Virus record (IMG/VR): IMGVR_UViG_3300049259_000022
Coordinates: 1-55,505 of that record
DNA: 55,505 nt
Reading direction: 5' to 3' (one strand)
Source: a virus
Taxonomy: Duplodnaviria > Caudoviricetes
The position numbers were made by a program, and so were the translations under genes. The notes beneath the pieces are model-generated. The model saw only the letters and a program-made list of their open reading frames with translations. It made no database searches and was not told where the DNA came from. This document shows positions 9,659-42,802 of the stretch, in pieces; the first letter of the stretch is position 1; every line of letters starts with the position of its first letter.

Positions 9659-9963
9659 CAGTGCACGAACCCTCTCTCGTAGTACTTGTATCCCTTGTAG
9701 CGTAGGAACCGGATGATCTCACGTTCTGAGCAACGCCATTCAGGCTTTGCTCCATGGGGGGCGATGTTGCGAAAGACGATTCGATCTGATGTTGGAACGC
9801 CGATCGACCGTCCCTCCCAGTGGGCGTATTCCAGCTTGACGTATTTTTCGGAGACAGCCAGAAGCATAGCTACCTGATCGAGGGTATACAGGAACGGGCG
9901 AGTGGGCAGGCCAACCGAGACGCGATCCGATTCGGACTGGTTACCTGGCCTTATCTCGGTCAC
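9658..9963 (-). CDS. helix-turn-helix DNA-binding protein (excisionase-like)
   Basis: LYTLDQVAMLLAVSEKYV...WRCSEREIIRFL. Confidence 0.65.
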   Translation of the reverse strand: MTEIRPGNQSESDRVSVGLPTRPFLYTLDQVAMLLAVSEKYVKLEYAHWEGRSIGVPTSDRIVFRNIAPHGAKPEWRCSEREIIRFLRYKGYKYYERGFVH

Positions 9964-10643
9964 CGATAACCTCGATCCGCCTTAGCCTTGTTGATTCGGC
10001 GATCCTGTTCCCACTTGTACTTCATGAAGTCGATCCCCTTCTCGCGACCAATGGCCGTAAATCCACCGAACGCAAGAGGATCCTGCTTGAGCATTGCGAA
10101 GTTGTACTTCATCCAGCGAAGTACTACCTCACGAATCGCGCCGACAGATGGTGGCTCATGCTCGTTGATCTGGGTTGCGATAAAGCTCAGTGGGAGATTG
10201 ACTGGGCCATCTCCACGGTCCCAGTCGTTGCACACCTTCATTACTTCAGCCTCGAGCTGTCCGCGTGCGCGATACCCGGACGGGGTCGGCGCGAATGCCC
10301 GCTCAGAGGACCGTGACGCGTCCTCTACGGTCCATTCACCATTCCCTGGGGTAGCGGTAGTGTCCCCGTCCCGCTCGGCCCGCAGCGCGGCCAGGAATTC
10401 CGGCGATGGCATCCAGAATGGTGACACTGACGGTTCATATTCCGGATTGACCGCCAGTACTCGCTCGATACCTGCCATCTCGCACATCTCGGAAAGCTCT
10501 TGGTGGCAGTGGCAGGGACACGTCAGCCAGTATTCACAGGTCTTGAGAGGCTTACCTGAAGGACTCTTCGGCCGCTGTCCTTCATGCTGGCCAACAGTAC
10601 AGAAGCCGGATCGCATCTTGGACTTCACGATAACGCTTGTCAC
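9960..10643 (-). CDS. Cys/His-rich N-terminus plus winged-helix-like domain protein
   Basis: CPCHCH cluster; C-terminal RGQLEAEV...IATQI...PPSVGAI, shared with 27910..28869 and 33223..34014. Confidence 0.65.
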   Translation of the reverse strand: MTSVIVKSKMRSGFCTVGQHEGQRPKSPSGKPLKTCEYWLTCPCHCHQELSEMCEMAGIERVLAVNPEYEPSVSPFWMPSPEFLAALRAERDGDTTATPGNGEWTVEDASRSSERAFAPTPSGYRARGQLEAEVMKVCNDWDRGDGPVNLPLSFIATQINEHEPPSVGAIREVVLRWMKYNFAMLKQDPLAFGGFTAIGREKGIDFMKYKWEQDRRINKAKADRGYR

Positions 10644-10822
10644 TAACCTCTCCTCAGAAGAATCGCTGCTTCGAACCCAGGCTGACGCTGTCGGGTGATC
10701 TCGGTCACCCGGTAGATATGATCCTCGGCTGCCATGTAGACCTGTTGGCGGATGACTGGCATATCCTTGAACTCGACAACCCTGTTATTTAGATCGCGGG
10801 GCATTCTCACGAAGATCTTCAC
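10643..10822 (-). CDS. small hypothetical protein (59 aa)
   Basis: Manual translation VKIFVRMPRDL...LLRRG*; fills the gap exactly with 1-bp overlaps at both ends. Confidence 0.55.
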   Translation of the reverse strand: MKIFVRMPRDLNNRVVEFKDMPVIRQQVYMAAEDHIYRVTEITRQRQPGFEAAILLRRG

Positions 10823-11658
10823 TAGAACTCGACCGCCTTCTTCATGGCTTCCATCTGCGTCTCGGTGTAGATCTGTGTTGTCGTGATCGAGGCATGACCC
10901 AGGAGTTCCTGAACGACTCGGATGTCCTTCGTGTTCATCTGGATGATAGTCGCGAACGTAGCGCGCAGGTCATGACTTGCAATCTCGCACTTGAGACCTG
11001 CGGTCCGACCCATGCGCGTTACAAGACTCCGTGCGGCACGATCCGAGATGGGGCACAGGAGACTGTTATCCTCGAAGGACTCCACGACCGCGCCCATGAT
11101 GGCGGACCAGGCGACGGGTGACACCGGCACATAGCGAACCTTGTCACCCTTGCCATAGACGGTCAGGATCATCGTCTGGATGTTCAGATGGGACGGGCGG
11201 ACCCTCCGTGCCTCGCCTACCCGTAGCCCAACGAGACCACACAGGCCGATGATCGCCTCTTCGTGACAGGACTTAGCTACCGCCAGCAATGACTGGAGGG
11301 ACGACAGGAGCCCCGGGATTGGGTGAGGCAGGGATCGAGGGGGCGTCGGAGCTTTGTACTTCACTAGGACTGGTGGGATCTCCGCCCAGGTAGCTAGGCT
11401 CTTCAGACTCGTGATACGCCTTCTCGTAGTCCTCGGAGAAGCGATCTTCCTCTGGATCGCCAGCCATTCCCGACTCTTCTGATCCAATTCCTCCATCGGC
11501 AGCATCACCATCTGAGGCTTCACTCCCTGTTGCTGCGCCACCCACTCCAGGAACATCCTCAGATCCGACTCGTACCCCTTCGCCGTCGCTTCCGCTAGGC
11601 CATCGTCTAATAACGAACTGCGGTACTTGGCGATAATTTCTTGGGTTAACGTCGTCAC
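10822..11658 (-). CDS. XerC/XerD-like tyrosine recombinase
   Basis: GLRVGE, GKGDKVRYVP, HDLRATFAT and LLGHASITTTQIYT give the full catalytic set. Start GTG 11658 after GGAGA; ~278 aa with no arm-binding extension. Confidence 0.92.
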   Translation of the reverse strand: MTTLTQEIIAKYRSSLLDDGLAEATAKGYESDLRMFLEWVAQQQGVKPQMVMLPMEELDQKSREWLAIQRKIASPRTTRRRITSLKSLATWAEIPPVLVKYKAPTPPRSLPHPIPGLLSSLQSLLAVAKSCHEEAIIGLCGLVGLRVGEARRVRPSHLNIQTMILTVYGKGDKVRYVPVSPVAWSAIMGAVVESFEDNSLLCPISDRAARSLVTRMGRTAGLKCEIASHDLRATFATIIQMNTKDIRVVQELLGHASITTTQIYTETQMEAMKKAVEF

Positions 11659-15086: not shown

Positions 15087-15117
15087 ATCTTTTCTCCTTG
15101 GAGGCGACGTTACTTCG

Positions 15118-15304: not shown

Positions 15305-18211
15305 CTATCGGTGTATTCGGGTTAGTTCGCCCTCAAGGTGCTTGACGACTTTACCAATGTCACCCTTGTTGTCGATCCGTACAGTGTCCAGGCCATAACT
15401 CTTGGGTGAATCAGTTCCGACTCCTACACCAACGAGCACGATACCCAAACGCTTATAGGTTTCGATCTCGCGCTTGAGGACTTCGAGCTCATCCTCGTAG
15501 TTTGCCGCAGGCATCTCGCCATCAGTGTAGTACAGCAAGATCTTGTCGGTCGCATCAGTCATCATCAGACGCTTCCGCAGGAACTCGAGATTGTGGCCGT
15601 CCAGGTTGGTCTCAACGGCGTGCAGCCAGGAGAGACCTTCCTGTTGCTTCTCGTTCCACGGATCAGTCCAGCCCTTGATCTGATTCATCACCATTTCGAA
15701 GTCTGGCTCTACGTCATCGTTACCCTTACGACGAGCTTGCATGTACGCCTCGCCAACCTCGGCAGTGTGCGCCCAGACCTCGAAGGCGATACCCATACGG
15801 TGCAGGAGTTCAGACTGGGCGAACATTGCCTGCTTCGTGACCACCATCGTCTTGCCGAGGTGCTGCGACCAGGAACAATCACCAGCGACGATGACTGCAT
15901 AGTCACGCTTCTTCGGACGATCCCGCTTCTTGTAGAGACGATCGTCGTCACCCTTCCAGGCGCGCTTGCCGAGCGCTCGCCCATCGAGCTTACCTCGCTT
16001 GAGGTTGCGCGCATCTCGAGTACGCCTGTTATCCGAGAATACCCTACTCATCTCGAACATGGCTGGCTGCAGGATGTCTTCCGGAGTCCGGAGTATGTCC
16101 CACTGGTCGCGACCCTGACGGTCCGTACCTCCGATGCGGATAGTCAGGTCGATGGATTCACGCATGCCTTTCCAGGCTTCACACCGTCTGTCATCCTTCG
16201 GCCAGGTATAGACCCTAAGGTTGGAAACGCTAGCCGTTGGCGCATCGAAGTGCTTGTTCTGCACGATCGCCTTATCGACGGCCTGTTCTACGGCAGGGTC
16301 TGCACCCTGTAAGGCTGGCATATGCTCATCGTCATCGTGAGTGTGTCCAGTGAAGTCCTGGATCAACTCAGCAACATCATCAGCGGAACCGTGGTCAGGA
16401 AGATCCTCTGATTCTGGCTCAGGAGTTCCTGTTCCACTATCTCCGCTGAGACTCGCCTCTGTATTCGGTGCGACGTTTGCCTCATCAGGAGTGGCCAGGT
16501 CCGAAGTCGTTTCGCCTGATCCATCATCGTCAACTGGCGATCCAGGGTCGCCAGATCCCACAGACTCAGATCCTGACTCAGATTGAGGAGCAGGTGAACC
16601 TCCCGCCTCGCTTCCGGTTTGATCAGCTCCATCTGTAGACTCTCGTCCAGGATCCTCCAGAGGTTCAGCTGGTCCGGCCTCGGTGGAATCGGATACGTCG
16701 TCTCCTTGATCACTTTCGTCAGACGCGCCGCCATCGCCTCCGGTCCCGGAAGGATCAGCTTGTTCTTCAGGTTCGGTTCGAGTACCTTCTCCTGGTGAAT
16801 CTTCTGCATCGCTTCCAGGATCAGGTTCTGCTTCTGAGGTAGGGTCAGCTTCTTCTTCTTCGGAGGGTTCGCCTGAGCCTCCACCAGCTTCTCCAGGCTC
16901 GCTACCTCGTTCCCCAGCTTCACCAGGATCTTCGCCGTCTCCGTCGCTGTCTGATCCGCTGCTTGATGGCTTGGGAACTCCAGCGTCTGAAGTCTCGCAA
17001 GATCCTTCGTCATGCTCTGTGCTCGGAGTTCCAGATCCGTCCAGATCCTCGTCACCTGTTGATCCGTTCCCGGACCCACCAGGATCTTGTTCAGTGCCGT
17101 CTGCGCCTTCTTTAGATGATTCCTCAAACCCTCCATCGTCAGCGGAACTACCCTGATCGCTGGAGTCATCAGCTGTCCCTTCGTCCCCTTCGGAGGAGTC
17201 ACTGCCACCTGATTCTTCCTTTGGCTCGGGTTCATCCTTGTCATCTTGCTCTTCGTCCTGTGGCGGGTCAGGCGGTGGCGGCGGTGGCTCGTATGGAGGA
17301 GGTTCTGGCATATCTTCGGGTGGCTCGCAGTAACCAAGCTCCCAGAGGCGTACGAGGCACTCAATGGTGAGCGCTGCGATCTCGAGCGCACTGCCGGATC
17401 GGTTGACTCGAAGGCAGACATCCTGCAGGATCGGATCTTCAAGATCCTGTTTAACCTTGTCGTGAAGCTCGCCTAGACCAAACCCCTCAGCCTTCCAAAG
17501 CAATCCGATGATGATCTGAGCATTGAGTGGGCGCTCGGACCAGCGGATCACCTCGCCGTCCAGGTCTACGGACCCTACTGTCGACATACGCTCGGCTGCA
17601 GACGCGAACATCTTACGAACGCCAGGACGAGCCTGGAACATCTTAATATCGATCCGAGCGTCCTCGAGAGCCATGATCGTCAGGCCAAGGAACGGTGACA
17701 TCTTGAACATCATCACCTGAGGATCATCGCCCCACTGAACCTTACGCATGCCTGCTTCTAGGTGCGCTCGGGCGATGGGGTTCTGTGCGTACATCACGGC
17801 GCGACGAAGTGCAGTCTGCTGCTGATCGGGCGTGGACTTCTGAAATGACCCTCCGACGATATGCGAGATCTCGTGAGTGATGCTTCTCTCGACCATCTCC
17901 CTGGCCGAGCAGGCGGGGCAGGTCAGGTGTCCAGCGGCGTTCCGGCGGTCGCACTGGTTGCGGATGTGCGGGGACGGATCGCCTAGCAACAGCGGGGGAC
18001 GGTAGTAGATCGTGGTGCCGTCCGTGCGGGGTGTACCGCCCGACAGCACCACGCGTACGGCCGGATTACCGGTCAGAACGCGAGCGAACGCGGTCCACAG
18101 GTATTCCATGTTCTGGAAGGTCTTAACTGCCCGTCGAGCCCACTCGTCTCGCTCTTCAGGAGCCAACCGCTCGATGCGGTCAGTGAGATGGAGCTCAAGT
18201 GTGTCGGTCAC
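15305..18211 (-). CDS. CobT-like vWA domain protein with N-terminal HExxH domain and long acidic linker
   Basis: TDGTTIY...THEISH...LEDARID N-domain; MIDAS DCSWS and YTDG; ~300-aa D/E/G/S/P-rich linker. Confidence 0.85.
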   Translation of the reverse strand: MTDTLELHLTDRIERLAPEERDEWARRAVKTFQNMEYLWTAFARVLTGNPAVRVVLSGGTPRTDGTTIYYRPPLLLGDPSPHIRNQCDRRNAAGHLTCPACSAREMVERSITHEISHIVGGSFQKSTPDQQQTALRRAVMYAQNPIARAHLEAGMRKVQWGDDPQVMMFKMSPFLGLTIMALEDARIDIKMFQARPGVRKMFASAAERMSTVGSVDLDGEVIRWSERPLNAQIIIGLLWKAEGFGLGELHDKVKQDLEDPILQDVCLRVNRSGSALEIAALTIECLVRLWELGYCEPPEDMPEPPPYEPPPPPPDPPQDEEQDDKDEPEPKEESGGSDSSEGDEGTADDSSDQGSSADDGGFEESSKEGADGTEQDPGGSGNGSTGDEDLDGSGTPSTEHDEGSCETSDAGVPKPSSSGSDSDGDGEDPGEAGERGSEPGEAGGGSGEPSEEEEADPTSEAEPDPGSDAEDSPGEGTRTEPEEQADPSGTGGDGGASDESDQGDDVSDSTEAGPAEPLEDPGRESTDGADQTGSEAGGSPAPQSESGSESVGSGDPGSPVDDDGSGETTSDLATPDEANVAPNTEASLSGDSGTGTPEPESEDLPDHGSADDVAELIQDFTGHTHDDDEHMPALQGADPAVEQAVDKAIVQNKHFDAPTASVSNLRVYTWPKDDRRCEAWKGMRESIDLTIRIGGTDRQGRDQWDILRTPEDILQPAMFEMSRVFSDNRRTRDARNLKRGKLDGRALGKRAWKGDDDRLYKKRDRPKKRDYAVIVAGDCSWSQHLGKTMVVTKQAMFAQSELLHRMGIAFEVWAHTAEVGEAYMQARRKGNDDVEPDFEMVMNQIKGWTDPWNEKQQEGLSWLHAVETNLDGHNLEFLRKRLMMTDATDKILLYYTDGEMPAANYEDELEVLKREIETYKRLGIVLVGVGVGTDSPKSYGLDTVRIDNKGDIGKVVKHLEGELTRIHR

Positions 18212-32549: not shown

Positions 32550-33172
32550 CCCTCGTCATCTGTGGCCAGGTCATGGGGCTGGCCCACATGTCCATTCTAC
32601 GGCACACTGGTTAGGCTCTCCTAACAACCGATAGCATACACTTTACTATCGGTGACCAGAGTGTGACAGGCACAGCTAGTTGCCTAGCGCAACCAGTTAT
32701 CGCCTGGCCACGGTAGACAGTGTTCTACGCCGGGTGCCGGGGGTACGTCATGCCTGAACCAGGTGCCGTTGGGTGGTCGGCTAGAACATGGCCTGACTGG
32801 CCCGCAATGGGGGCTAGGAGACGCGTTCACGCCTTCCCGGTAGGTGGGGGCCGGTACGGGGGTTGAGTCCGCCAGGCGGGCACACACGGCGTGTGATGTG
32901 GGGACCGGTGGTGATGTCGGCGGGCTAGCGGCTAGGGCATGTGGTGATCGGGCCACAATGGGGCCGCTAGGGGGCGCTGGGCGGGTGATGCACACATGGG
33001 CGTAGGTGGCATGTAGCGACCCGTTAGGACGGCACGTAGGGGCTAGGCGTCAGGTGTGCATGAGGCGTGTGGATTGTCCACGGGATGCTGGACATTGCAT
33101 ACTGGATACACCAGGTGTGTCGGCGGGCACGGGGGTCGTATGCGGGAGACTGTATACAGTCACATGACAGAG

Positions 33173-33207
33173 ACAAACCCACCTGGCTGGTGACCAGGTG
33201 GGTTTGT
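33173..33207 (-). terminator. intrinsic terminator-like hairpin
   Basis: ACAAACCCACCTGG-N7-CCAGGTGGGTTTGT just after the stop at 33223. Confidence 0.7.
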
Positions 33208-33222
33208 TACTTACCTGATGGG

Positions 33223-34014
33223 TCAGGCGAGCCGGTAGCCCTTGACCTTGGCGTCGTTGACGACGGACTCGATGCCGTCCATCTCACGGCCGTACGCCGC
33301 ACCGATGGCACCGACCGAGGGCGAGTCGTCCGGACCGTACGCGTCGGACCGGTGGTTGCGCACCTGGGCGCAGGTCAGGATGGTGCCCTTGGGGGCCGCG
33401 TCCAACGCGGAACGGATGTGCGCCTCGACGGACCGCTGCGGGCCGGTACGACGCGAGCCGGACTTGACGACGGCCAACTTGGCGGCCAGGGACTGCGCCG
33501 ACTTGCGCTCGTCATCGGTCAGGTTCGTCAACCGCTCGAGCATGGCGTTCGTGACCTCGTCGCCGTGCGCCTCACGGAACGTGGCCCGTGCTGTGGCGGA
33601 TGCCATGGACAGCGCGGCCAGGTGGATCACGTAGCCGTCGGCGGGGTCAACCTCGACGGGTGCCTTGGTGGTCACCATGACGGCCAGCACGTCGCGCAGC
33701 ACGGCCAGCTTGTCCATGTTGAGCTCGTTCAGCGCGTCGGTCTGGAACTTGTTCCACGCGGACCGGATGGCGGCCTTGCCGGACTTGTCGGCGGACCGGT
33801 ACGCCTCGCCCACGGTGGCCACGTACGCGGCCTGGTCGGTCTCCCAACCGGTGGGAATGACGTAGGCGGGGGTAGCGGCCTGATCGGTCTCAACGGCCGT
33901 CACGGTGGCATCGGTGCCCTGTGCGTTCGGCGCGGCCTGGACGGGTGCCGGGGTCGCGTTCGGCGCGTCGGCGGGGGTGGAGGTGGTGCTGGCCTTGCGG
34001 GTACGTGCGGTCAT
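33223..34014 (-). CDS. putative DNA-binding protein, paralog of 27910..28869
   Basis: QRSVEAHI...ILTCAQV...SDAYG...PSVGAI; start ATG 34014 after AGGAG. Confidence 0.75.
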   Translation of the reverse strand: MTARTRKASTTSTPADAPNATPAPVQAAPNAQGTDATVTAVETDQAATPAYVIPTGWETDQAAYVATVGEAYRSADKSGKAAIRSAWNKFQTDALNELNMDKLAVLRDVLAVMVTTKAPVEVDPADGYVIHLAALSMASATARATFREAHGDEVTNAMLERLTNLTDDERKSAQSLAAKLAVVKSGSRRTGPQRSVEAHIRSALDAAPKGTILTCAQVRNHRSDAYGPDDSPSVGAIGAAYGREMDGIESVVNDAKVKGYRLA

Positions 34015-34071
34015 GATCTCGGCTCCTAGCCGGTAGGTGGTGCGCGGCGGGCACGGTGCCCGCCTAGAACC

Positions 34072-34101
34072 AGAATGGGTGCTGATGGGGTGCGGTGTCA
34101 A
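34072..34101 (-). promoter_or_regulatory. SigA-type promoter
   Basis: TTGACA-N18-CATTCT upstream of ATG 34014. Confidence 0.55.
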
Positions 34102-34169
34102 GCTAGTCCGTATGGTGGACTGGTGGGACTGTTGCCGGGGGCAACGAATTACCCCCGGCGTAGTGCGTA

Positions 34170-34577
34170 CTACGGGATGACTGGCAGCCAGTCGTAGTCG
34201 TTACCGGTCCAGACGCGCAGGCATGAGTCCTCGGTGGGGCATGTGCGTGTCGGGTGCCACTCCGGAGGGTTGCTGATGGGTGCCTGCTGGTCGTGGACGA
34301 TGCGGTCCACGTAGGCGGACATCTGGACGGCTCCTAGGCCGGACACGCACGCCACCATGACGCCCAGGGCCAGCCATCCGGCCAGGCGGGTGATGAACGA
34401 CGGGCGGGAGCCCCGACCGGACTGGCGGCCCATGCGGCGCATCATGCGTCGGTGCTGGCGACGGGACTTGCCCGTGTCGTGGGCGGCCATGGTGCGGGCG
34501 ACGTGAGGGTAGGACTGGGGATCCGGCATGGTGGATGCGGCGGTCAGGTGGTTCTGGCGGGTGGTGTGTGTGCGCAT
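34170..34577 (-). CDS. putative membrane protein
   Basis: Arg-rich stretch followed by TM LAGWLALGVMVACVSGLGAV; CPTEDSC motif. Confidence 0.65.
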   Translation of the reverse strand: MRTHTTRQNHLTAASTMPDPQSYPHVARTMAAHDTGKSRRQHRRMMRRMGRQSGRGSRPSFITRLAGWLALGVMVACVSGLGAVQMSAYVDRIVHDQQAPISNPPEWHPTRTCPTEDSCLRVWTGNDYDWLPVIP

Positions 34578-34641
34578 GATCTCGGCTCCTAGCCGGTAGG
34601 TGCCCCGCTACGGGGCTGATGGGTGGTCGGTGGGTGATTGG

Positions 34642-34680
34642 GTGTGTGGGCACCTGATAGGCCGGTAGGTGCCCACACAC
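34642..34680 (-). terminator. hairpin after the Thr/Tyr-rich gene
   Basis: 14-bp stem GTGTGTGGGCACCT/AGGTGCCCACACAC. Confidence 0.6.
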
Positions 34681-34695
34681 AGCGTGTGGTGGGTG

Positions 34696-35862
34696 CTAGA
34701 TGGAGTAGTGCGCGTCCAGGGTGTCGGAGTAGGCGGGGTAGTGGACGTTGGCGGGCTCGTAGGTGTCGTAGGGCATGCCGATCACTAGGGCGGCGTACGC
34801 CTGGCCGTCGGTGCGGAACGGGTGACCGAACGCGGCCATGAGGTCGGTGTAGTCGTGCACCATGGCTGCCACGTCGACGCGTAGGACCGTGCGGTAGGTG
34901 TCGCGGTGCATGGGTACGCGGGTGACTACGCGGGTGTAGGTGGCGGGGGCTACGGGGCCGAGCTCGCCGTAGTTGAATCGGTGCGACGTGCCGGTGAACT
35001 CGTTGCCGTTGGCATCGATGTGCTCGGCGTGCGTGTGGCCGAACGGGGCGATGCACGCGCCGTAGCCCGCGTAGGTGTGGCTGCACGTAGGTGCCCCGGC
35101 TTGCGCCCAGGAGACGGCCGTGACCAGGGTTGCCTCGAGGTTGCGTGCGTAGGTGCGGTAGTAGGCGTGGTCTGCGGCGACGTAGGTGATGGTGTCGCCG
35201 GTACCGTCGTCGGTGGCAACCCAGGCGTGGTTGACGTCGGTGCGCGTGGTGACGTAGGTGCCGTCGTCGTAGGTGTAGGTGCGGGTGACGATGCCACCAC
35301 CGGCGATGGCGGTGTAGTCGGTGCACGTGGACCGTACGCCGTCCATGTACCGGGCCAGGCTAGTGGTACCGGTGTAGGTGGTGTAGGGAGTCATGGTGGC
35401 ACCAGCGGCCTGCGGGGTGGTGTTGGTGATGATGCGGACGGGTGCCAGGTCGGTGTCGAAGGTCGGTGTCGCGGCGTGTGCGGGAACGGTCGGCGCACCG
35501 TAGGTGTCGTGTCCGGGCATGGGGGACGCGTAGCCGTAGCCATCAGCGGTCTGGATGAACGACCTGGCCGCGTCCACGGTGGTGATGGCAACGCCGTAGC
35601 GGGTGCGTAGGGCGATGGGCTCGTCGGTGTAGGTGGGTGCGGGAGGCGGGGTAGGCACGGTGCCGTCTGATTGGCCATCGATGGTGTCGCACACGATCTC
35701 GTAGGTGTCGGTGCCGGGGGTGGCCTGTGCGCCGTAGCAATGGCCGCTAGGGGCCTCGTGGGTACGCATCCAACGGTGTGCGCCGTCGTAGGTGCGGTAG
35801 CCGCTACGGACAACCACGGGTGCGGTGTGGTCGGTGGTGTGGGTGTGTGTGTGGATCGCCAT
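34696..35862 (-). CDS. Thr/Tyr/His-rich, lysine-free hypothetical protein
   Basis: 388-aa ORF with C-ending codons, AGGGG SD-like site upstream and a hairpin after the stop. Confidence 0.65.
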   Translation of the reverse strand: MAIHTHTHTTDHTAPVVVRSGYRTYDGAHRWMRTHEAPSGHCYGAQATPGTDTYEIVCDTIDGQSDGTVPTPPPAPTYTDEPIALRTRYGVAITTVDAARSFIQTADGYGYASPMPGHDTYGAPTVPAHAATPTFDTDLAPVRIITNTTPQAAGATMTPYTTYTGTTSLARYMDGVRSTCTDYTAIAGGGIVTRTYTYDDGTYVTTRTDVNHAWVATDDGTGDTITYVAADHAYYRTYARNLEATLVTAVSWAQAGAPTCSHTYAGYGACIAPFGHTHAEHIDANGNEFTGTSHRFNYGELGPVAPATYTRVVTRVPMHRDTYRTVLRVDVAAMVHDYTDLMAAFGHPFRTDGQAYAALVIGMPYDTYEPANVHYPAYSDTLDAHYSI

Positions 35863-36025
35863 GGTTGTGCCCCTAGGTGTGTAGGTAGGTGGTGGTGCAT
35901 GTGTGTGCCTAGGAACAACGTAGGCGTCAGGCGTAGGTGTGTGTAGGTGCGCGCACCTTATTCACAAGATCGATACCACATCGTGACCTGACGATCAGTC
36001 ATGTGGTGGTGGCTGTGTGTGCTTA

Positions 36026-36316
36026 GTTGCGTTAGGCAACAGTATGAGGAGTTGTTGCAAAGGGCAACGAAAGTCTATCTATTCTTGCCTTTGGCAACGA
36101 CTTTGTTGTAGACATCCCACAACTCGATGCCTTGGGCAACAATGCACCTTATTGATGCCTTTGGCAACGATTACGCGTGCCGTAGGCAACTGTTGCTAAA
36201 GGCAACCGATAACGTACATTATCGGCGGGTTATATGATGCCTTATGCAACGAGTTTGATTGCCGATGGCAAACACCTTGGTTGCCCTTGGCAATCGATAT
36301 GGTTGCACCTGGCAAC
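36026..36316. repeat. array of 11 imperfect 15-bp palindromes, consensus GTTGCC-NNN-GGCAAC
   Basis: Starts at 36026, 36054, 36084, 36126, 36154, 36176, 36192, 36236, 36258, 36280 and 36302. Confidence 0.9.
36206..36225. other. symmetric dif-like tyrosine-recombinase core site
   Basis: CCGATAA-CGTACA-TTATCGG: inverted arms around a 6-bp spacer. Confidence 0.5.
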
Positions 36317-36389
36317 AAAGAAAATTCCGACCGGGGGTATGTGCGCGCGCCCTTAGGCGCCTCGTCCACATATCAAACTTTTCGGCTCT

Positions 36390-36960
36390 AAGACTATAAT
36401 AGTACTATCATCTATCTGTACAACAGGTCCCGTCCATGTGAACGATCTAGCGTCCAGGAGACAAGAAGAGGACTGGTCACTGTAGTATATATATATATAT
36501 ATATATTACTTATATTTCTTACATTTATTTGGGGTATATTTCCCGGGTGATTTCTAGGCGTGTTTCCGCAGGTCACGGCCATGTTCTCGGTTTGTTCCGG
36601 TTTCCTCGGACACCATACATCCCCGGCACCTTGTTCATCAGGCGACAGTCTTCCCTATGGCCGCATTCACTCAGCAGTTGTCGCCTCTTTTTCTTCTCTC
36701 TTTCTTGGTGCTCTTGGGTATCTATTAGGACCCCGAAATATTAAATTCGATTTTCGGCCCAAAGGTGCCCCGTGACCTGCACAGATGTCCGAAAATGACC
36801 GCCCGGATTTATTCCCCATAAAATGCTTCTGGGCACCCCACTTTATCGCCCGGACTAAACTGACTGTAGGTTAGTGCTATCATTAATCCACCCTAAAAAC
36901 CACCAGTTGAATAAAATGGGGTATAAATCCGGGCGATACTCCCCGAAAAAACCCTTACGG
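36390..36960. other. AT-rich non-coding region, candidate replication origin or genome-end region
   Basis: (TA)~10 tract near 36486-36506; inverted repeats 36801-36819/36916-36934 (18/19) and GCAGGTCACGG/CCGTGACCTGC; no credible ORF. Confidence 0.5.
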
Positions 36961-37021
36961 GTCACTTTATACTCGTTCTGTAGTGTTTTTGATGCCTTGT
37001 TAGACTCGTTTCTGGGCAAAG

Positions 37022-37066
37022 AAACAGCCCTACAGACACCTGTTTCGAGGTGTCGTAGGGCCGTTT
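37022..37066 (-). terminator. terminator-like hairpin ending the primase operon
   Basis: GCCCTAC-A-GACACC / GGTGTC-GTAGGGC stem flanked by AAAC/GTTT. Confidence 0.6.
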
Positions 37067-37076
37067 CTAGGGTGTG

Positions 37077-37501: not shown

Positions 37502-37995
37502 GAGACGGCTACCTTGTCGGCCAGGAACGGTGTCAGGGAAGCTCCTTGTCGCTCAAAGGCTTGTTCGACCTCCTCTAGCAGCTCATCTGCAGCTGCATAT
37601 TTGGGGCTGCGCTTGGTGCCCTGATGGATGCGCATGCCTTCCCGATGGGCGCGACGGCAAAGAAGACCTCGACACCCCATCGTGTAGGTAGACCGTGATG
37701 CGTGCTGATTGAATCCAGGCTGACGGATCTCACTGATGATGTGATCGATCATTCGCTGGCGAATTTCTCCGCGAGACTGCAAGATGTAGGTGTCTATGCT
37801 TGTCGCAGGAAAGATGTCTTGCGAGCCATCTTCACGAGGAAAAACTGCAAAGTGGATGTTCTGAGTGGGGTCCCAGACAATCTCGCACTTGGTGTACGAG
37901 CAAGCAAGGCGGATGATATCATCGGCATCTTGGGCGAGTTTTGAGTGGCGTACGGCTACCTCTCCAAGCCAAAGAAGATTTGAACTGTCAGGCAT
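37498..37995 (-). CDS. hypothetical protein with H...Y..GCR..LC motif
   Basis: HASRSTYTMGCRGLLCR; start ATG 37995 overlaps the upstream stop. Confidence 0.6.
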   Translation of the reverse strand: MPDSSNLLWLGEVAVRHSKLAQDADDIIRLACSYTKCEIVWDPTQNIHFAVFPREDGSQDIFPATSIDTYILQSRGEIRQRMIDHIISEIRQPGFNQHASRSTYTMGCRGLLCRRAHREGMRIHQGTKRSPKYAAADELLEEVEQAFERQGASLTPFLADKVAVS

Positions 37996-40063
37996 GCTTG
38001 ACACTTTGGTATCCCTGGGGAGGGCGACCACGGGTACCGGTCGCAAGTTTGAAGGGTTCGACCTGGTCGGCGTCCATGAGTTGTTTGAGTGCATCATTCA
38101 CCTGCTTATCGCCGATATTCTTGGTTTTAAAGGCGTCGCGGATTTGCGTCCGCGTAGGACCGCGACCCATCTCGAGCTCTTTGCGGCGGATATAGTTAAA
38201 GATTCTGTCGATGAATTCTTGCTGCTGTGATTTGCCAATTTGCGCACCGACGAGCTTGAATGTCGCGAGGACATAAGGGTGAAGACGCTCCACGAACAGA
38301 ACATCTTGTATATCAGCAAAAAGGGCACGTCGATTGATCGCGTGACAGAACATTAGCTTCTTGTAGTGAATTTCCAGGCGACTCAGCATGTCGTCGTCTG
38401 TTATTTTGAGCATGGCCTCAATCGGCCGGAAGAACCTCTTGAATTCAGCTCGCGCACTATCCGTCACGCCGACGACGACCGGAGGGTCTGTCGGATTCTT
38501 CTTGAGGTGTGCGATGTGGATGCCGTTAAGAATGAGCTCGGCGGGGCGTAGATTGACGTTCGTATCATTGAAGTAATCATCGCGAGGCTTCGACGGACCG
38601 GCTACATACAACCATCTGTTCAAATAGCCTGACGCCGAGTCCTGGCCGTCCAGGAGCTTGCGGAGTGCTCTCGGCTGGCTGGAAGTACTAAAGGCGGCGA
38701 ACGCATTATAGGCTACTTTCCGTCCATGCGTCTGGCTTGAATTGGAAATTTTCGGCTTACCGTCGATGAAGTCCATGATCTTCGTTTTCAACGTTGATCC
38801 CTGGACGGAAGACTTTGCAAGAAGGCCAGATAGCTCACTGAACTCTACATAGCCGCGAATAGGCACATGCCCAGTAGCTGACCCCTTGACGATTTGCTGG
38901 AATTCACCAATCAGCGCTTCGCCAGATGCTACTTCACCAACCTCGCGAACACCCTCGACCAGGATTCCTAGGTCGTTCTCTGGCATTGCAAAGTTAAGAG
39001 CTCGAGAAACGAAAGCCTGTGCGGTTGACTTGCCTGATCCGGTGCGCCCTAGGTAGCAGATTGCCAGATTAGGCATGACGGGGCGAGTGCCATCCGCCAT
39101 AAGAGTATCTCGCCCAACGGCTAGCCCAAGAAGCATGAGACCACTGAAGAAGTGATACTCCTCTGGGCTATAGTCCAGACTAGTGGCATCGCACCACTTG
39201 TATAGGAAGGTTTCCTCGTAGCCCGCCAGTGCTTCTCGCCAGTCGAAGCTCAGCGAATATGACTCCGAATCCAGCTCCGGATCGTATGCGTCGACTTCGG
39301 GATCAATGCTGATGACTTGCGCGACAGAGTTATCAGCAGGCTGATCCACCTCCTCTGGAGCTTGTACAGGTTCGGCGAGTGGGATCTGTGGCACAAGAGA
39401 CAGGTGAGATCCAGTCGGCGGGACGGGCGGCAATACAGCTTGATGAGGGGCAGGCAATGACGCTTGTTGTGGGGCAAGTACCGGAGGGGGTGGAGCAGGT
39501 GTAGATACAACGACCGGCGGTACGAGGTCATACCCGCCTCCTAGCTTTTCCTTGAACGAATAGCCCAGGTCTTCGCCCATGGCACGCCTGAGCTTGTGAA
39601 ATAGTGCGCCCCTCTTGTAATCGGGAACCGGGAGACCGTGATGATATGCAGCGATGTCGTAAATATCGCCGCCTTGCATTCCGCAAGGTCCACAGACCCA
39701 TGTATTATTCTCAGTATTGGCCCATGCCGATGGATTACTGTCTCGATGTCCTGGAATAGGACATGAGATCTTGATACCTTCGGTTCGGCCGGATGTGATA
39801 ACTGGTGTCATCTTTCCGCACCAGCGATTATACGCTTCAATGATCCCGATACCCTTGAGGATTCTGTCGAGTTCGAGTTCCTCTTCGCTGCGTTCGCGAG
39901 ACGAATCAACATCAGGAATCAAGACTGGATCAAACTGATGAACAGAGGGGGCTACTGGAGGTGTAGGAGATAGTTCTGGTGCTTCAGTAGAGGTTTGTGC
40001 GGCTCGTTTGGCATCTTCTCGAGCCTGATACTCCATGGCTTTCTTGAGAAGATCACTTGGCAC
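37988..40063 (-). CDS. CHC2-like zinc finger fused to a P-loop helicase-like (DUF3987-like) domain
   Basis: CPIPGHRDSNPS...WVCGPC..GGDIYD; Pro-rich linker; GRTGSGKST; SGYLNRW; C-terminal winged-helix-like tail. Confidence 0.8.
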   Translation of the reverse strand: MPSDLLKKAMEYQAREDAKRAAQTSTEAPELSPTPPVAPSVHQFDPVLIPDVDSSRERSEEELELDRILKGIGIIEAYNRWCGKMTPVITSGRTEGIKISCPIPGHRDSNPSAWANTENNTWVCGPCGMQGGDIYDIAAYHHGLPVPDYKRGALFHKLRRAMGEDLGYSFKEKLGGGYDLVPPVVVSTPAPPPPVLAPQQASLPAPHQAVLPPVPPTGSHLSLVPQIPLAEPVQAPEEVDQPADNSVAQVISIDPEVDAYDPELDSESYSLSFDWREALAGYEETFLYKWCDATSLDYSPEEYHFFSGLMLLGLAVGRDTLMADGTRPVMPNLAICYLGRTGSGKSTAQAFVSRALNFAMPENDLGILVEGVREVGEVASGEALIGEFQQIVKGSATGHVPIRGYVEFSELSGLLAKSSVQGSTLKTKIMDFIDGKPKISNSSQTHGRKVAYNAFAAFSTSSQPRALRKLLDGQDSASGYLNRWLYVAGPSKPRDDYFNDTNVNLRPAELILNGIHIAHLKKNPTDPPVVVGVTDSARAEFKRFFRPIEAMLKITDDDMLSRLEIHYKKLMFCHAINRRALFADIQDVLFVERLHPYVLATFKLVGAQIGKSQQQEFIDRIFNYIRRKELEMGRGPTRTQIRDAFKTKNIGDKQVNDALKQLMDADQVEPFKLATGTRGRPPQGYQSVKHA

Positions 40064-40328
40064 GCTCTTCCTCCGTTAGTGAAACGGCCTTTGTGACATC
40101 AGGCATAATCCTTGAGAACCAATCAGCGAAGCACCAAAGGTGCATCCTGAGGATAACTTTATCGAACTCCCATTCCCAGGATTGATGCTTTCGTTTGATC
40201 TTCTTCCTACACCAAGTACAGTGTCCACCTGATTCATTAAGCTCGATACCGATAGTGGAGATGCGGTCAGATGGTGTGGCAGGAGCGATAAGTTGAGTAA
40301 TCAACTCATCGAAGCTCTTTCTAATCAC
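40053..40328 (-). CDS. small zinc-binding protein
   Basis: CTWC...HLWC; start taken at GTG 40328. Confidence 0.5.
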   Translation of the reverse strand: MIRKSFDELITQLIAPATPSDRISTIGIELNESGGHCTWCRKKIKRKHQSWEWEFDKVILRMHLWCFADWFSRIMPDVTKAVSLTEEERAK

Positions 40329-41151
40329 GGAAAGGGTCCCCCATTTCAAGCACTCTAGCCTGGTCGGCATGCGGTCGAAGGTCCGTCATTCTCCCCCCCA
40401 TATCGATGAAGAATGTTGGATCAGTTGTTTTACGGTTTCTGCCCAGCGGCAGGCGCATCAGATTCCCTAGATCCTTTCCAGCGAGGGAATCCTGTTTGGG
40501 GAATACCTCGATTTCAAAGTTTGCATATCCGGAAGTAGGATCTTCATTGACGTGTTTATAGAAGTTGTCGCCCCGCGTGGGTGTATACTCTCGAGAAGCC
40601 ATGATTGCGATCTTCGCCGCTTCTCGCACCTCGGAAGCAGCCATGAGACCAGTGAATCCATAGACATGGATTCCTTTGCCGCCGGTGTACGTCACTGCGC
40701 AGGGTAATTGAAGATCTCTGGTGATAATCTTTGCGAACTTAGTTCCGATCATCTTCATCTGATACTTATACCAGGCGCGCGAAGGATGCGAGCGGTCGCG
40801 CCACTCATCACGGGGCGAGCCCGAATAGATCTGGAAAGCCTCGCCTTCGCGAAAGTCGATCCAGGTTCCCGCGCCCTTTACGAGGTCAACATCGAAGGCA
40901 AAGAGCTTGCAGTTTCCGTCCTGATCAAGCATGTAATGCCCGTAGGTACGCTCGCCGGACAGATGCTGCTGCAGATGAGTCATCTTGAATCCGACGGGGC
41001 CGTAGGGGGCGAGTTTATTGGTCCCCTTTTCGGCGTCGATCTCTGCAAGGCGGCTATCGGGGCAGTAAGTGCCATCATCGAATTGGATCGCCTTGACATC
41101 CCGCCTTGTGATAAACTTTTTGGCGAGTTGAACAGCGAGATCTTCTGCCAT
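40321..41151 (-). CDS. archaeo-eukaryotic primase (AEP) domain protein
   Basis: HLSG..YG.Y, FAFDVD, GGKGIHVY, IEVFPKQ and GNLMRLPLG motifs. Confidence 0.85.
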   Translation of the reverse strand: MAEDLAVQLAKKFITRRDVKAIQFDDGTYCPDSRLAEIDAEKGTNKLAPYGPVGFKMTHLQQHLSGERTYGHYMLDQDGNCKLFAFDVDLVKGAGTWIDFREGEAFQIYSGSPRDEWRDRSHPSRAWYKYQMKMIGTKFAKIITRDLQLPCAVTYTGGKGIHVYGFTGLMAASEVREAAKIAIMASREYTPTRGDNFYKHVNEDPTSGYANFEIEVFPKQDSLAGKDLGNLMRLPLGRNRKTTDPTFFIDMGGRMTDLRPHADQARVLEMGDPFRD

Positions 41152-41458: not shown

Positions 41459-42802
41459 ATGGAGCGAGTCTGGTTTCGTAACCCTAACAGAATTGCCGGT
41501 GAGATTGGTGAGGTGGGACATCTTTATGTGTCCTGGAGTCGCGTCGAGCTGAATAAGTCGAAGACAGACCCGAAAGCCTTCGGCAATCTTCACTGGGGGA
41601 CGAGCTCTAAGTGGCAGGGTCTGATTATTGGCCAGGGGTCCGCCGTTCACGTGGACGCAGAGCATGGTCTAGAGAATCCTCGCGCTGTATACCCGGTCTG
41701 GGAGTATGGCGAAGAGTGGAATGTTCTAGAAGAGCTCGCATCGAGACCTATTGGCGAGAATGAGGCTGTCTGCTCCGATCCTGTGATCGATCAGGCGTGG
41801 CGGCCAGTATTTGGCCAGGAGCACGTAGTATTCATTACAGGCTTGCCAGAATTTACTACTGGCGTTGGCAAGTCGATCGTTCGCAGGCTCAATGAGTTTC
41901 AGAATGATTTCCCTGAGTGCTGCGTGTATATCGACGGCAGTTACTCGTACAACGTCTTGTTCGGGATGGCCTTTCGGGCAGGTAACGTGGATACGTTTGA
42001 GTCCGCTAAAAGTAACGAGGTCATACTTCCCTCGGGGCGGCGCGCTAAGAATCACTCGTTTCCACAGCATCAGAAGTGGATTCACCTGCTCGGAGCAAGT
42101 ATTCCTGAACTCAACGACCAGGGTAAGCGAATCAGGTATAACTGTAAGTCCGCTCTCTGGGCGGCTGAGAACTTCAAGAGAGATATTGCCTTCAAGACGC
42201 AAAAACCTTCTGGACAAGTTGATCCTGACGCCCTGGTGCACGTACCTGAGCATGGCAGCAATCAGATTGGTGCTGGCATTGATGGCGATAAGATCAACTG
42301 TGATACCTGTTCGCTGGCTTTGCAGTGCAAGTTTTACCGTCTGGGTTCGGTGTGTACCTTGCCGAAGACCGAGACAAAGGACCTCGCAAAGATGTTCGGA
42401 ACTCGCGATGCCGATACAATCGTAGATGCCCTCGGAGCCCTCGTCGGCCGCCAAGCACAGCGAGTTGAGCGAGGCATGGCGGAAGAGGAAGTCCTCGGAG
42501 TCCTTGATCCCGAGGTCAGTAAGCAGCTGAACTCTACGATTGATAATGGGATCAAACTTGCCAAAATCATCGACCCATCGAGGGCCGGGGGCACCAAAGT
42601 TCAAGTCAACGTCGGTCAAGGCGCGGCGAGCGCGACGCAAGTCCAGATGGTCAACCCTGATCAGATGGTTGGGCAGATTGTTCGGGAGATCACCCAACGT
42701 ACCGGTATCCCAGCCGCGCAGATCACCCAAGAAATGATCATGCAGCAACTCATGCTCATGGGTGGCGGGGCGCAGGTTGTCCAGGGAGAAGTGATGCCGT
42801 GA
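41459..42802 (+). CDS. putative terminase small subunit-like protein with degenerate TGT-like N-domain and Cys4 cluster
   Basis: Immediately upstream of terL with GTGA overlap; YPVWEYGEEWNVLEEL; CDTC..C..C cluster; helical C-terminus. Confidence 0.55.
   Translation: MERVWFRNPNRIAGEIGEVGHLYVSWSRVELNKSKTDPKAFGNLHWGTSSKWQGLIIGQGSAVHVDAEHGLENPRAVYPVWEYGEEWNVLEELASRPIGENEAVCSDPVIDQAWRPVFGQEHVVFITGLPEFTTGVGKSIVRRLNEFQNDFPECCVYIDGSYSYNVLFGMAFRAGNVDTFESAKSNEVILPSGRRAKNHSFPQHQKWIHLLGASIPELNDQGKRIRYNCKSALWAAENFKRDIAFKTQKPSGQVDPDALVHVPEHGSNQIGAGIDGDKINCDTCSLALQCKFYRLGSVCTLPKTETKDLAKMFGTRDADTIVDALGALVGRQAQRVERGMAEEEVLGVLDPEVSKQLNSTIDNGIKLAKIIDPSRAGGTKVQVNVGQGAASATQVQMVNPDQMVGQIVREITQRTGIPAAQITQEMIMQQLMLMGGGAQVVQGEVMP

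Follow-up and report, generated by a model that had tools for sequence, protein, structure and literature searches.

A dif-like palindrome in lytic actinobacterial phages as the putative crossover site of an orphan Xer-like recombinase

We analysed a window of 55,505 nucleotides (the whole stretch of DNA presented above) and identified a 20-base palindromic core, CCGATAA-N6-TTATCGG, that resembles half of a bacterial dif site. It is very probably the long-missing target of the small orphan recombinase found in these lytic phages of actinobacteria, and we propose it as the crossover site of that enzyme. The site probably joins or resolves the phage genome ends rather than making lysogens. The complete reading, in which the phage's own Xer-like recombinase would carry out crossover at the core so as to join genome ends or resolve multimers, the enzyme not being a lysogeny integrase, is one that we favour at slightly better than even confidence, from sequence comparison and analogy. 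A symmetric resolution or joining site for a single recombinase had been suggested in an earlier note on this DNA, and it stands as the best reading. The features concerned are listed below by position in the window.

10822..11658, minus strand: Xer-like tyrosine recombinase of 278 aa (PF00589, E 7e-23), with a catalytic and a putative core-binding domain
35863..37076, no strand: AT-richer long non-coding region, downstream of the primase/helicase operon
35950..36400, no strand: approximate position predicted for the direct terminal repeat in packaged DNA, placed by synteny only
36027..36317, no strand: 11 short palindromes, TTGC(C)-N4/5-(G)GCAA(C), forming an array on both sides of the core
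36202..36229, no strand: 28-bp (11-6-11) extent of the site, its right side overlapping the array copy at 36193-36206
36206..36225, no strand: core site CCGATAA-N6-TTATCGG, with an asymmetric 6-bp spacer, TGTACG on the minus strand
36322..36362, no strand: G/C box, minus-strand reading ...GGCGCGCGCACATACCCCCGGTCGGAATTTT, conserved in the related contig L005
36485..36507, no strand: (TA)n run, from the sequence
36568..36576, minus strand: promoter-like GTGACCTGC box, with a second, inverted copy at 36772-36780 (plus strand)
37988..40063, minus strand: DUF3987-type helicase, context gene from the protein scan
40321..41151, minus strand: AEP-type DNA primase, context gene from the protein scan

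The plus strand at 36202-36229 reads GCAACCGATAACGTACATTATCGGCGGG, and the minus-strand reading, CCCG CCGATAA TGTACG TTATCGG TTGC, agrees exactly with the inverted CCGATAA arms around 6 bp that the earlier note had described. That note had also taken the site as a symmetric 11-6-11 structure, which holds for the inner 7 bp of each arm: perfect symmetry covers 7+7 bases (36206-36212 and 36219-36225) and stops there in the window, where the four outermost bases of each 11-bp arm, as proposed, are asymmetric. Eleven copies of TGC-N5-GCAA lie between 36027 and 36317 with start-to-start spacings of 28, 30, 42, 28, 22, 16, 44, 22, 22 and 22, and the palindrome fills the 44-bp gap of the array, with an overlap of a few bases with the copy at 36193-36206. 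We considered whether the palindrome arose by chance and has no function. The window contains 11 perfect 7-6-7 palindromes, including two within the (TA)n run, and eight 20-mer palindromes with at most one mismatch, including four within the TA run; the shape by itself is therefore not above chance. However, the specific pattern CCGATAA-N6-TTATCGG exceeds chance, with one match in the window against 0.00 expected from 100 shuffles, and it recurred exactly in 12 recombinase-bearing genomes, the window included, as well as in the incomplete contig L005, with symmetric variants in 10 more genomes, so that a chance origin is extremely improbable. Between the window and L005, 18 of the 20 core bases are identical, against 77% for the non-coding DNA around the core.

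The recombinase gene at 10822..11658, as given in the earlier note, was confirmed. PF00589 matched its product at 81.7 bits against a gathering cut-off of 27.1, and alignment with relatives favoured the shorter start at 11658. The protein gave full-length matches to the XerC, XerA and XerD profiles (115 bits for XerA), with scores under every curated Xer cut-off, including the equivalog cut-offs for XerC (TIGR02224, 126.5 versus 335.15) and XerD (TIGR02225, 112.3 versus 329.6). The nearest solved structures were XerA and XerD, with XerA the best match (4a8e, E 2e-20; 5hxy, E 1e-19). Residues R146, K170, H229, R232, H255 and Y264, which we take to be the catalytic R...K...H-x-x-R...H...Y, were invariant in 12 homologues, and these catalytic-type positions aligned with the XerA 4a8e stretches GLRVSE, GKGGKDR, HQLRHSFAT and LLGH..TTQIY. 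The Xer profile alignments span residues 48-313 of the 315-aa reading of the enzyme, and the N-terminal SAM-like core-binding profile PF02899 scored 20.4 bits, under its cut-off of 22.3. At a length of 278 aa, the protein has no room for an extra arm-binding domain of the lambda-Int kind. BLAST scores against actinobacterial XerC and XerD were alike (66-77 bits), and the phage enzymes, which have diverged down to 30-40% identity with that of the window, formed one clade apart from host XerC/XerD with support of 100/100. A recent capture of host XerC was ruled out, as the phage enzyme lies no closer to XerC than to XerD and falls in this separate clade. A single-protein search of IMG/VR returned no close relatives of the recombinase; its relatives in IMG/VR were found by an alignment-based search. 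We also considered a 227-aa neighbour gene (9960-10643) with a weak HTH match as an accessory of the recombinase, and rejected it because homologues are also present in three recombinase-less relatives. In excerpts of PMC5559632, PMC4563357 and PMC13313380, such an 'integrase' is described in the middle of a lytic-type operon, with neither an identifiable attP nor lysogens; there the attP 'could not be identified' in clusters CX and DF (PMC5559632), and the genes were judged 'unlikely ... used as phage integrases' (PMC13313380). PMC4524720 reads the GMA3 gene literally, as an indication that the phage may form lysogens.

The pairing of the site with a stand-alone Xer-like recombinase, which the earlier note had claimed, was borne out across the relatives. 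The site or a two-fold symmetric variant was found in 22 of the 28 genomes carrying a homologue of the window recombinase, one more (Reynauld) having a weak candidate only, and in 0 of 3 related phages without the gene, namely SteveFrench, Austin and GTE7, which share the helicase and were searched at up to 2 mismatches. The exact CCGATAA-N6-TTATCGG is present in the window, ReqiDocB7, Perlina, GMA3, GordDuk1, GordTnk2, Gmala1, Camerico and Jumbo; Orchid, Gibbles and RobinSparkles carry (T/G)CGATAA-N6-TTATCGC, and Trogglehumper carries CGCATAA-N6-TTATGCG. Nine of 12 further uncultivated, recombinase-bearing contigs also had the site (three exact, four as CCGATAG-N6-CTATCGG, one hybrid and one with one mismatch), and a reversed control pattern gave 0 matches in all 12. 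The complete, recombinase-bearing Mbo2, G003 and G165 had no convincing site, and the incomplete contigs G159 and G167 had none. The isolates are partly non-independent: GordTnk2, Gmala1 and GordDuk1 are more than 93% identical, and Orchid, Gibbles and RobinSparkles have their genus label, site position and recombinase identity in common. A scan of IMG/VR with the bare pattern returned at least 119 stretches and was set aside, the 80 loci read being mostly unrelated hairpins and a different palindrome family.

Every spacer read with its flanks was asymmetric, and the spacers vary among phages; none of TGTACG, CCGCGA, CAATGA, CAAGTG, CGTCTG, CTTAGG, CTCTGG, CCGACG and CCATCG, nor any of those in the further uncultivated contigs, is its own reverse complement. 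The outer arm bases covary symmetrically (ATTG/CAAT, CTG/CAG, GTA/TAC, TGA/TCA, TGC/GCA, CCGGC/GCCGG), and GordDuk1, Jumbo, GMA3, Perlina, Gibbles and G162 have arms whose symmetry extends to 10-12 bp. Three features of a lox-type site, namely identical inverted arms, a variable asymmetric spacer and co-occurrence of site and recombinase, were found. Alternatively, the palindrome might bind another dimeric protein, such as a replication initiator, a terminase small subunit or a regulator, in an origin or packaging region, the recombinase being unrelated to it. This would be consistent with its place among short repeats beside the TA run, downstream of the primase and helicase genes, with its location in the terminal repeat of relatives, and with flanking repeats that are particular to each phage. 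However, the site is absent from all three recombinase-less relatives, which possess the helicase and of which GTE7 has a terminase small subunit. Moreover, ATAA-N6-TTAT with a variable asymmetric 6-bp spacer and symmetric arms of 10-12 bp is the architecture of a tyrosine-recombinase core, and the arm is a known Xer half-site. We therefore consider binding of an unrelated protein improbable, and hold to the recombinase as the partner of the site.

The likeness to dif, together with the actinobacterial XerC arm that the earlier note had given, was verified against bacterial loci and against the dif sites of Mycobacteriales. Among 80 bacterial loci, mostly from Actinomycetota, holding CCGATAA-NGTACN-TTAT, a query from which the TTATGT-type arm is absent, 55 go on as TTATGT(C/A/T), 44 of them as TTATGTC, and the TTATCGG arm was found in 0 of 80. 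CCGATAA-N6-TTATGTCA was present in 95 of 151 Mycobacteriales genomes (one copy in 87, two in 8), and the reversed-pattern control gave one match. The inner 7 bp of the window arm and its spacer match the XerC half and the spacer of chromosomal dif in actinobacteria, so that the window shares a run of 17 bases, through arm, spacer and TTAT, with real dif sites. The phage site has the inner 7 bp of the XerC arm and the 6-bp spacing in common with the XerCD/dif system of Actinomycetota. It differs from dif, as it is defined, in lacking the XerD arm; in the window, TTATGTCA is replaced by TTATCGG, an inverted XerC-type arm.

Given this likeness, the palindrome could be an attP-like site for integration at host dif, in an IMEX-like or lysogenic manner, by the phage recombinase and/or host XerC/XerD, as the earlier note had offered as an alternative. 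In favour of this stand the 17-base identity, the spacer TGTACG in 10 of the 55 dif-type matches, and the spacers of three uncultivated relatives: CGTACA of L005 is the dif spacer of G009, TCGACA of G168 is the commonest among the dif matches listed in the Mycobacteriales search, and TGCACA of G161 is also among the dif spacers listed. IMEX such as CTX-phi, VGJ-phi and TLC-phi are likewise mobile elements with a dif-like sequence. However, these elements use host XerCD and are not known to carry a recombinase, whereas a dedicated recombinase co-occurs with the phage site. Against the four dif-identical spacers, the eight distinct spacers from cultured relatives are all unlike every dif spacer listed, and the XerD arm is missing. 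No repressor was recognised among 24 window proteins scanned. A search for related prophages, which the earlier note had advised, was made with the phage helicase and found no homologue at E<=1e-20 in a sample of 401 Mycobacteriales genomes. Excerpts of PMC4563357 report that lysogen isolation failed for GordTnk2, Gmala1 and GordDuk1 and that related prophages were not known. Taken together, integration at host dif is unlikely.

Host XerC might also use a site made of two XerC half-sites. It could drive the resolution of phage DNA, or the site could act as a decoy or recruit the host protein; the phage recombinase would then take part alongside XerC or have some other task. The arm sequence is that of the XerC half of dif in 95 of 151 Mycobacteriales genomes, and CCGATAA is retained on both sides of the deepest split in the tree of phage recombinases, although the proteins there are just 30-40% identical to that of the window, which could mean that a host protein constrains the arms. 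On the other hand, the site is absent from the three relatives without the phage recombinase, and the arm variants ATAG/CTAT, GCGATAA and CGCATAA shift symmetrically in particular phage lineages. Such lineage-specific changes fit co-evolution with the phage protein and not with a conserved host one, and we give the use of the site by host XerC a low probability.

The earlier note did not mention that, in relatives whose record ends are repeated, the short direct terminal repeat contains the site. This was the case in six of six such relatives that have the site (seven with the weak candidate), with end repeats of the six, measured on the deposited records, of 249-370 bp. The site occupies 163-182 of a 316-bp end repeat in Camerico, 194-213 of 370 bp in Jumbo, 170-189 of 249 bp in Orchid and 254-273 of 330 bp in Trogglehumper, and is likewise within the end repeat in Gibbles and RobinSparkles. 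The record ends of SteveFrench and Austin also repeat, though the recombinase is absent, and the L005 contig begins 362 bp beyond its site. For the window, we predict that the site and its flanking array lie within a terminal repeat at about 35950..36400, an extrapolation because the data are assembled contigs without molecule ends. The 370-bp repeat of Jumbo is also stated in an excerpt of PMC5559632; PMC4563357 and PMC5559632 (Table 1) assign GordTnk2, Gmala1, GordDuk1 and GMA3 to the circularly permuted or pac-type genomes instead of those with a DTR.

On the model of Cre/loxP and single-Xer systems, two monomers of the recombinase would bind the identical inverted arms CCGATAA / TTATCGG, a pair of sites would synapse as a tetramer, and cleavage and strand exchange would take place where the 6-bp spacer meets the arms; the asymmetry of the spacer would set the direction of the site. 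Where the site lies within a direct terminal repeat, each packaged genome would hold two directly repeated copies. Crossover of the two end copies would close the genome into a circle, and crossover between molecules would build head-to-tail multimers for packaging, which the reverse reaction would resolve. We propose tentatively, at a confidence just short of even, that lytic actinophages like ReqiDocB7, GordTnk2, Jumbo and Orchid have a previously unrecognised Cre/lox-like system, made up of a phage-specific Xer-like recombinase and a dif-derived symmetric site in the short DTR. The incoming linear genome would then be circularised or concatemerised by site-specific recombination, and not by annealing or homologous recombination. 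In the subclade of the window, whose spacers match those of real dif sites, the site may in addition cross-talk with host dif or XerC.

As in the Cre/loxP system of P1, one phage-encoded tyrosine recombinase that probably lacks an arm-binding domain is paired with identical inverted arms around an asymmetric spacer, and the site can sit in the terminal redundancy, where recombination would cyclize the incoming genome, which is the role of Cre/lox in P1 itself. Unlike loxP, with its 13-8-13 layout, the phage site has 7-12 bp arms and a 6-bp spacer. The phage enzyme is Xer-like, Cre not being among its nine PDB matches at E<=1e-5, and the hosts here are Actinomycetota. In further contrast to P1, these phages are reported or predicted to be lytic, with short exact terminal repeats, and are not temperate plasmid prophages. 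'Cre' is spelled out as 'cyclization recombination enzyme' in the abstract of PMC11117649. Archaeal XerA/dif, XerH/difH and XerS/difSL also pair a single Xer-type enzyme with a near-symmetric dif-like site; the enzyme studied here differs in being phage-encoded, under all curated Xer cut-offs and in a clade apart from host XerC/XerD, and its site in being on the phage genome in the terminal repeat.

The conserved core links a mid-operon 'integrase' without attP to an unusually long non-coding region, and supplies a concrete candidate target and function for the orphan recombinase. If the proposal is true, virulent phages with short terminal repeats would use site-specific end-joining or resolution, and such genes would drop out as markers of a temperate lifestyle, which is relevant to the choice of biocontrol phages. 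The small recombinase/site pairs, with their natural spacer and arm variants, could then also serve as orthogonal genetic tools for Actinomycetota.

The array probably is a feature of the terminal repeat, with sites for a packaging or replication protein, and not a set of accessory sites of the recombinase. Of 34 strand-matches to the array motif, 18 lie inside 36027..36317, the expectation for the entire window being 7.5, and the density of GCAAC/GTTGC is 46.5 per kb in the array versus 2.0 per kb elsewhere. The earlier note had proposed that the core is a dimer-resolution site with the TTGC-N5-GCAA array as accessory sites controlling the recombinase, as in cer/psi, where an Xer-type core also lies beside extra protein-binding DNA. 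The core does lie mid-array, the same motif surrounds the G161 site, and the stems are better conserved between the window and L005 (77/99 identical) than loops (31/55) or inter-site DNA (69/118). However, other recombinase-bearing relatives flank the core with different repeats or none of this type: seven of eight uncultivated sites have 0-2 GCAAC/GTTGC within 200 bp on either side, and Camerico, Jumbo, Orchid, Trogglehumper and Reynauld have 0-1 per terminal repeat. SteveFrench, with neither recombinase nor site, has a terminal repeat of 191 bp that holds six of them. In cer and psi, the accessory sequences are on one side only, whereas the phage repeats are two-sided and vary between phages. 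We therefore abandoned the accessory role of the array as unlikely. TGC-N5-GCAA also gave 16 strand-matches at 11 places outside the array, at most a mild excess over the whole-window expectation of about 7.5±3.

The elements in 35863..37076 follow the same order as in relatives, with TGACCTGC boxes, the TA run, the G/C box, and the repeats with the core site; the equivalent region of relatives is described as unusually long in an excerpt of PMC4563357. TA-rich tracts are found at the corresponding position in ReqiDocB7, Perlina, Camerico and Jumbo, and comparable G/C boxes are about 100 bp away from the site in G160-G163, ReqiDocB7 and Perlina. The GTGACCTGC box also occurs in non-coding DNA of ReqiDocB7, Perlina, Camerico, Jumbo, Trogglehumper, SteveFrench and Austin. 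A blastn search of the region against the phage collection gave no match, Rfam and tRNA scans of it found nothing, and a promoter/terminator scan gave counts at chance level, the sole 'terminator' being an array copy. The assembled contigs of one sequencing run span the stretch, and a diverged relative in those of a second run covers 36187-36414.

The window (55,505 bp) is one IMG/VR virus record with a completeness estimate of 72%. Its nearest cultured relatives, at 25-35% protein identity, are ReqiDocB7 and Perlina of Rhodococcus and, among Gordonia phages, those of the GordTnk2, GMA3, Jumbo and Camerico type. The earlier note had described a symmetric dif-like site at 36202-36229, and the window sequence bears out both its sequence and its symmetry: a perfect CCGATAA-N6-TTATCGG is found at 36206-36225. 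It lies within an array (36027-36317) made up of 11 TTGC-N5-GCAA palindromes, where it occupies a gap of 44 bp. The array itself is part of an AT-richer non-coding region, about 1.2 kb long, downstream of the helicase operon.

Genes of the window referred to in the text
10822-11658, minus strand, Xer-like recombinase, 278 aa
37988-40063, minus strand, DUF3987 helicase, in one operon with the AEP primase
40321-41151, minus strand, AEP primase, in one operon with the helicase
41459, divergent start of the terminase genes

The window contains 11 perfect palindromes of the 7-6-7 type, and this shape of the core site is by itself not significant. The specific pattern CCGATAA-N6-TTATCGG gave one match in the window against 0.00 expected from shuffles, which is significant. 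The region is also conserved in L005, a close uncultivated relative whose helicase is 64% identical to that of the window. Its homologous non-coding region (77% identity) carries both the array and the palindrome; the core palindromes are identical at 18/20 positions, and within the array the stems are identical at 77/99, the loops at 31/55 and the linkers at 69/118. Through its two base differences, the L005 20-mer (11497-11516) is the exact reverse complement of window 36206-36225, relative to the conserved flanks. The spacer reads CGTACA in L005 and TGTACG in the window around a palindromic GTAC centre, reflecting either one transition per lineage or a flipped core. The L005 contig starts 362 bp past its site, on the side opposite the helicase, a weak hint of a physical genome end.

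The catalytic domain of the recombinase scores over the Pfam cut-off, and the protein aligns over its full length with the XerC, XerA and XerD profiles at scores far under their cut-offs; among solved structures it matches XerA and XerD best. Across 12 homologues the residues R, K, H-x-x-R, H and Y do not vary, and we take these to be the catalytic residues, with roles assigned from the family. The phage recombinases form one clade, separate from actinobacterial XerC and XerD.

The first set of recombinase-bearing genomes (n = 16) comprised 14 isolates, the window and contig G003, with Kampe and PatrickStar left out, and is partly non-independent: the GordTnk2 trio is >93% identical, and Orchid, Gibbles and RobinSparkles agree in genus label, in recombinase identity and in where the site lies.

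Core sites in the first set of recombinase-bearing genomes
Exact CCGATAA-N6-TTATCGG: window, ReqiDocB7, Perlina, GMA3, GordDuk1, GordTnk2, Gmala1, Camerico, Jumbo (n = 9)
(T/G)CGATAA-N6-TTATCGC: Orchid, Gibbles, RobinSparkles (n = 3)
CGCATAA-N6-TTATGCG: Trogglehumper (n = 1)
Imperfect candidate site, 8/10 arm pairs: Reynauld (n = 1)
No site found: Mbo2, G003 (2 of 16)

G003, which is without the canonical site, has a perfect 12-6-12 palindrome at 1695-1724, AAGGATGGTTAT-CGAATA-ATAACCATCCTT, overlapping a weak site-like sequence. An alignment-based search yielded 12 further uncultivated recombinase-bearing contigs, nine of which carry the site: three exact, four as CCGATAG-N6-CTATCGG, whose change relative to CCGATAA-N6-TTATCGG is symmetric on both arms, one hybrid and one with one mismatch. 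The reversed-pattern control gave 0 matches in all 12, and no site was found in G165 (complete), G159 (45% complete) and G167 (51% complete). As negative controls we used SteveFrench, Austin and GTE7, which have the helicase and genome layout in common and lack the recombinase; no site was detected in them at ≤2 mismatches, nor any 7-6-7 palindrome within the terminal 1.8-1.9 kb of SteveFrench and Austin. The pairing of site and recombinase proposed earlier is upheld by their co-occurrence in recombinase-bearing relatives and by the absence of the site from 3/3 recombinase-less ones, and the core site is very probably the target of the phage recombinase.

Across the phages, the 6-bp spacers vary and the arms are retained. 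Because no spacer equals its own reverse complement, the sites are directional. Bases beyond the 7-bp arms covary on both sides (ATTG/CAAT, CTG/CAG, GTA/TAC, TGA/TCA, TGC/GCA, CCGGC/GCCGG), giving symmetric arms of 10-12 bp. Such an architecture is that of a tyrosine-recombinase core site for a homodimer. Some Gordonia phages (Camerico 201-212, Jumbo 267-275, GordDuk1) have additional lone half-sites (GATAAC/GTTATC) at a distance of 20-60 bp from the core; close to the window's core, none was detected.

With CCGATAA-NGTACN-TTAT as query, a scan of prokaryote genomes, one for each species, gave at least 80 loci. Among those listed, Actinomycetota were in the majority, and the sequence continued as TTATGT[C/A/T] in 55/80 (TTATGTC in 44 of those 55), an arm absent from the query; among these 55 the spacer was TGTACA in 40 and TGTACG in 10. 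With a free spacer, CCGATAA-N6-TTATGTCA was present in 95/151 Mycobacteriales genomes (one copy in 87, two in 8), and its reversed control gave a single match in the same scan. The unpublished genome G156 is among the 95, and the dif claim is independent of it. This pattern is the chromosomal dif site, and by these bacterial scans the actinobacterial XerC arm given in the earlier note was correct. The description of the phage site as dif-like holds for the XerC arm, spacer and TTAT, 17 matching bases, but not for the XerD arm of dif, in place of which the phage core has an inverted XerC-type arm; TTATCGG occurred in 0/80 of the loci listed for CCGATAA-NGTACN-TTAT.

That the phage site serves integration at host dif, as had also been suggested, is improbable. 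The phage core is without the XerD arm, and the spacers of the cultured relatives are unlike dif spacers from the Mycobacteriales scan, whereas those of the window, L005 and the uncultivated contigs G168 (TCGACA) and G161 (TGCACA) are identical to real dif spacers. By a rough estimate such identities exceed chance (for about 19 sites, about 30 dif spacers in both orientations out of 4096 would give an expectation of about 0.3), and they may reflect descent from dif, a Xer-type cleavage sequence preference or cross-talk with the host system. The phage helicase had no match in a sample of 401 Mycobacteriales genomes. The GMA3 gene has been counted among putative integrases and read as a sign of possible lysogeny (PMC4524720). 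According to PMC4563357, lysogens were not obtained and related prophages were not known, and phages of this group are predicted to be lytic (PMC13313380).

An unrelated palindrome family, GATG-CCGATAA-CCCCAT-TTATCGG-CATC, was seen at L201, L217, L241 and at least ten or so further IMG/VR loci, on virus contigs of 10-16 kb and ~50-55% G+C, at times in two copies 7-9 kb apart; they may represent the attL/attR of integrated elements of small size with the same arm motif.

In the records of ReqiDocB7, Perlina, GMA3 and the GordTnk2 trio, the site is located close to the helicase end; in ReqiDocB7 it is within the annotated CDS-free gap, and in GordDuk1 it is ~0.8 kb beyond the helicase. Terminal repeats were measured by comparing both ends of each deposited record, and in every recombinase-bearing relative with repeated ends the site is inside that repeat (in Reynauld, the candidate only).

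Core site position and terminal repeat length
Camerico: site 163-182, repeat 316 bp
Jumbo: site 194-213, repeat 370 bp
Orchid: site 170-189, repeat 249 bp
Gibbles, RobinSparkles: site 171-190, repeat about 250 bp
Trogglehumper: site 254-273, repeat 330 bp
Reynauld: candidate site 231-256, repeat 362 bp

Table 1 of PMC5559632 likewise gives a DTR of 370 bp for Jumbo. In SteveFrench and Austin, which lack the recombinase, the end repeats are shorter (191 and 179 bp) and do not contain the site. The window, Camerico and Jumbo have a landmark order in common, namely helicase, TGACCTGC boxes, TA or CT-rich tract, repeats and site, and first leftward-arm gene; we therefore infer that the array and site of the window correspond to the terminal repeat. 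The same TTGC-N5-GCAA motif flanks the site of G161, quite different repeats flank the core in other recombinase-bearing phages, and the terminal repeat of SteveFrench (1-191), a phage without the recombinase, has six GCAAC/GTTGC motifs resembling the window array. The array is therefore probably a terminal-repeat feature, perhaps for packaging or replication proteins, and the earlier view of it as accessory sites is not supported, the dif-like site paired with a recombinase being retained.

Based on the observed sequence, symmetry and conservation of the site, its co-occurrence with the recombinase and its terminal-repeat placement in relatives, we propose that a recombinase homodimer would bind the core site and exchange strands at the spacer edges. 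Recombination between two terminal copies would convert one genome to a circle and, between genomes, produce head-to-tail multimers, which the reverse reaction would resolve. Cre/loxP in P1 acts by the same kind of scheme. The name 'cyclization recombination' is used in the abstract of PMC11117649. We slightly favour this full reading, a recombinase target with an end-joining or resolution role, and on sequence grounds the pair looks to be a lox/dif-type module in lytic actinophages. The literature searched gave no description of the site or of its link to recombinase and terminal repeat.

Other features were observed in the window. A (TA)n microsatellite at 36485-36507 could be a DNA-unwinding element; in ReqiDocB7, Perlina, Camerico and Jumbo the corresponding position is taken by TA-rich or CT-rich tracts. 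The (G/C)TGACCTGC box, at 36568-36576 (minus) and 36772-36780 (plus), occurs in several copies in the long non-coding region of L003, L004, Camerico, Jumbo, L162, SteveFrench and L337, recombinase-less phages included, and looks like a conserved promoter element with a -35-like TTGACC. At 33000-36000 the window has 66-67% G+C against ~57% elsewhere, with a strongly positive GC skew (0.12-0.28) and ORFs without family match (e.g. 34696-35862, 388 aa). The terminase small subunit (41459-42802, plus) is unusually large at 447 aa and has a weak match (E 2.4e-5) to a PHROG whose annotation is queuine tRNA-ribosyltransferase. For a 968-aa protein (15305-18211, minus) the matching PHROG, at E 2e-139, bears the annotation 'cobalamin biosynthesis protein'. 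The window also has three tRNA genes, for Met, Pro and Gly, at 15117, 26458 and 27460.
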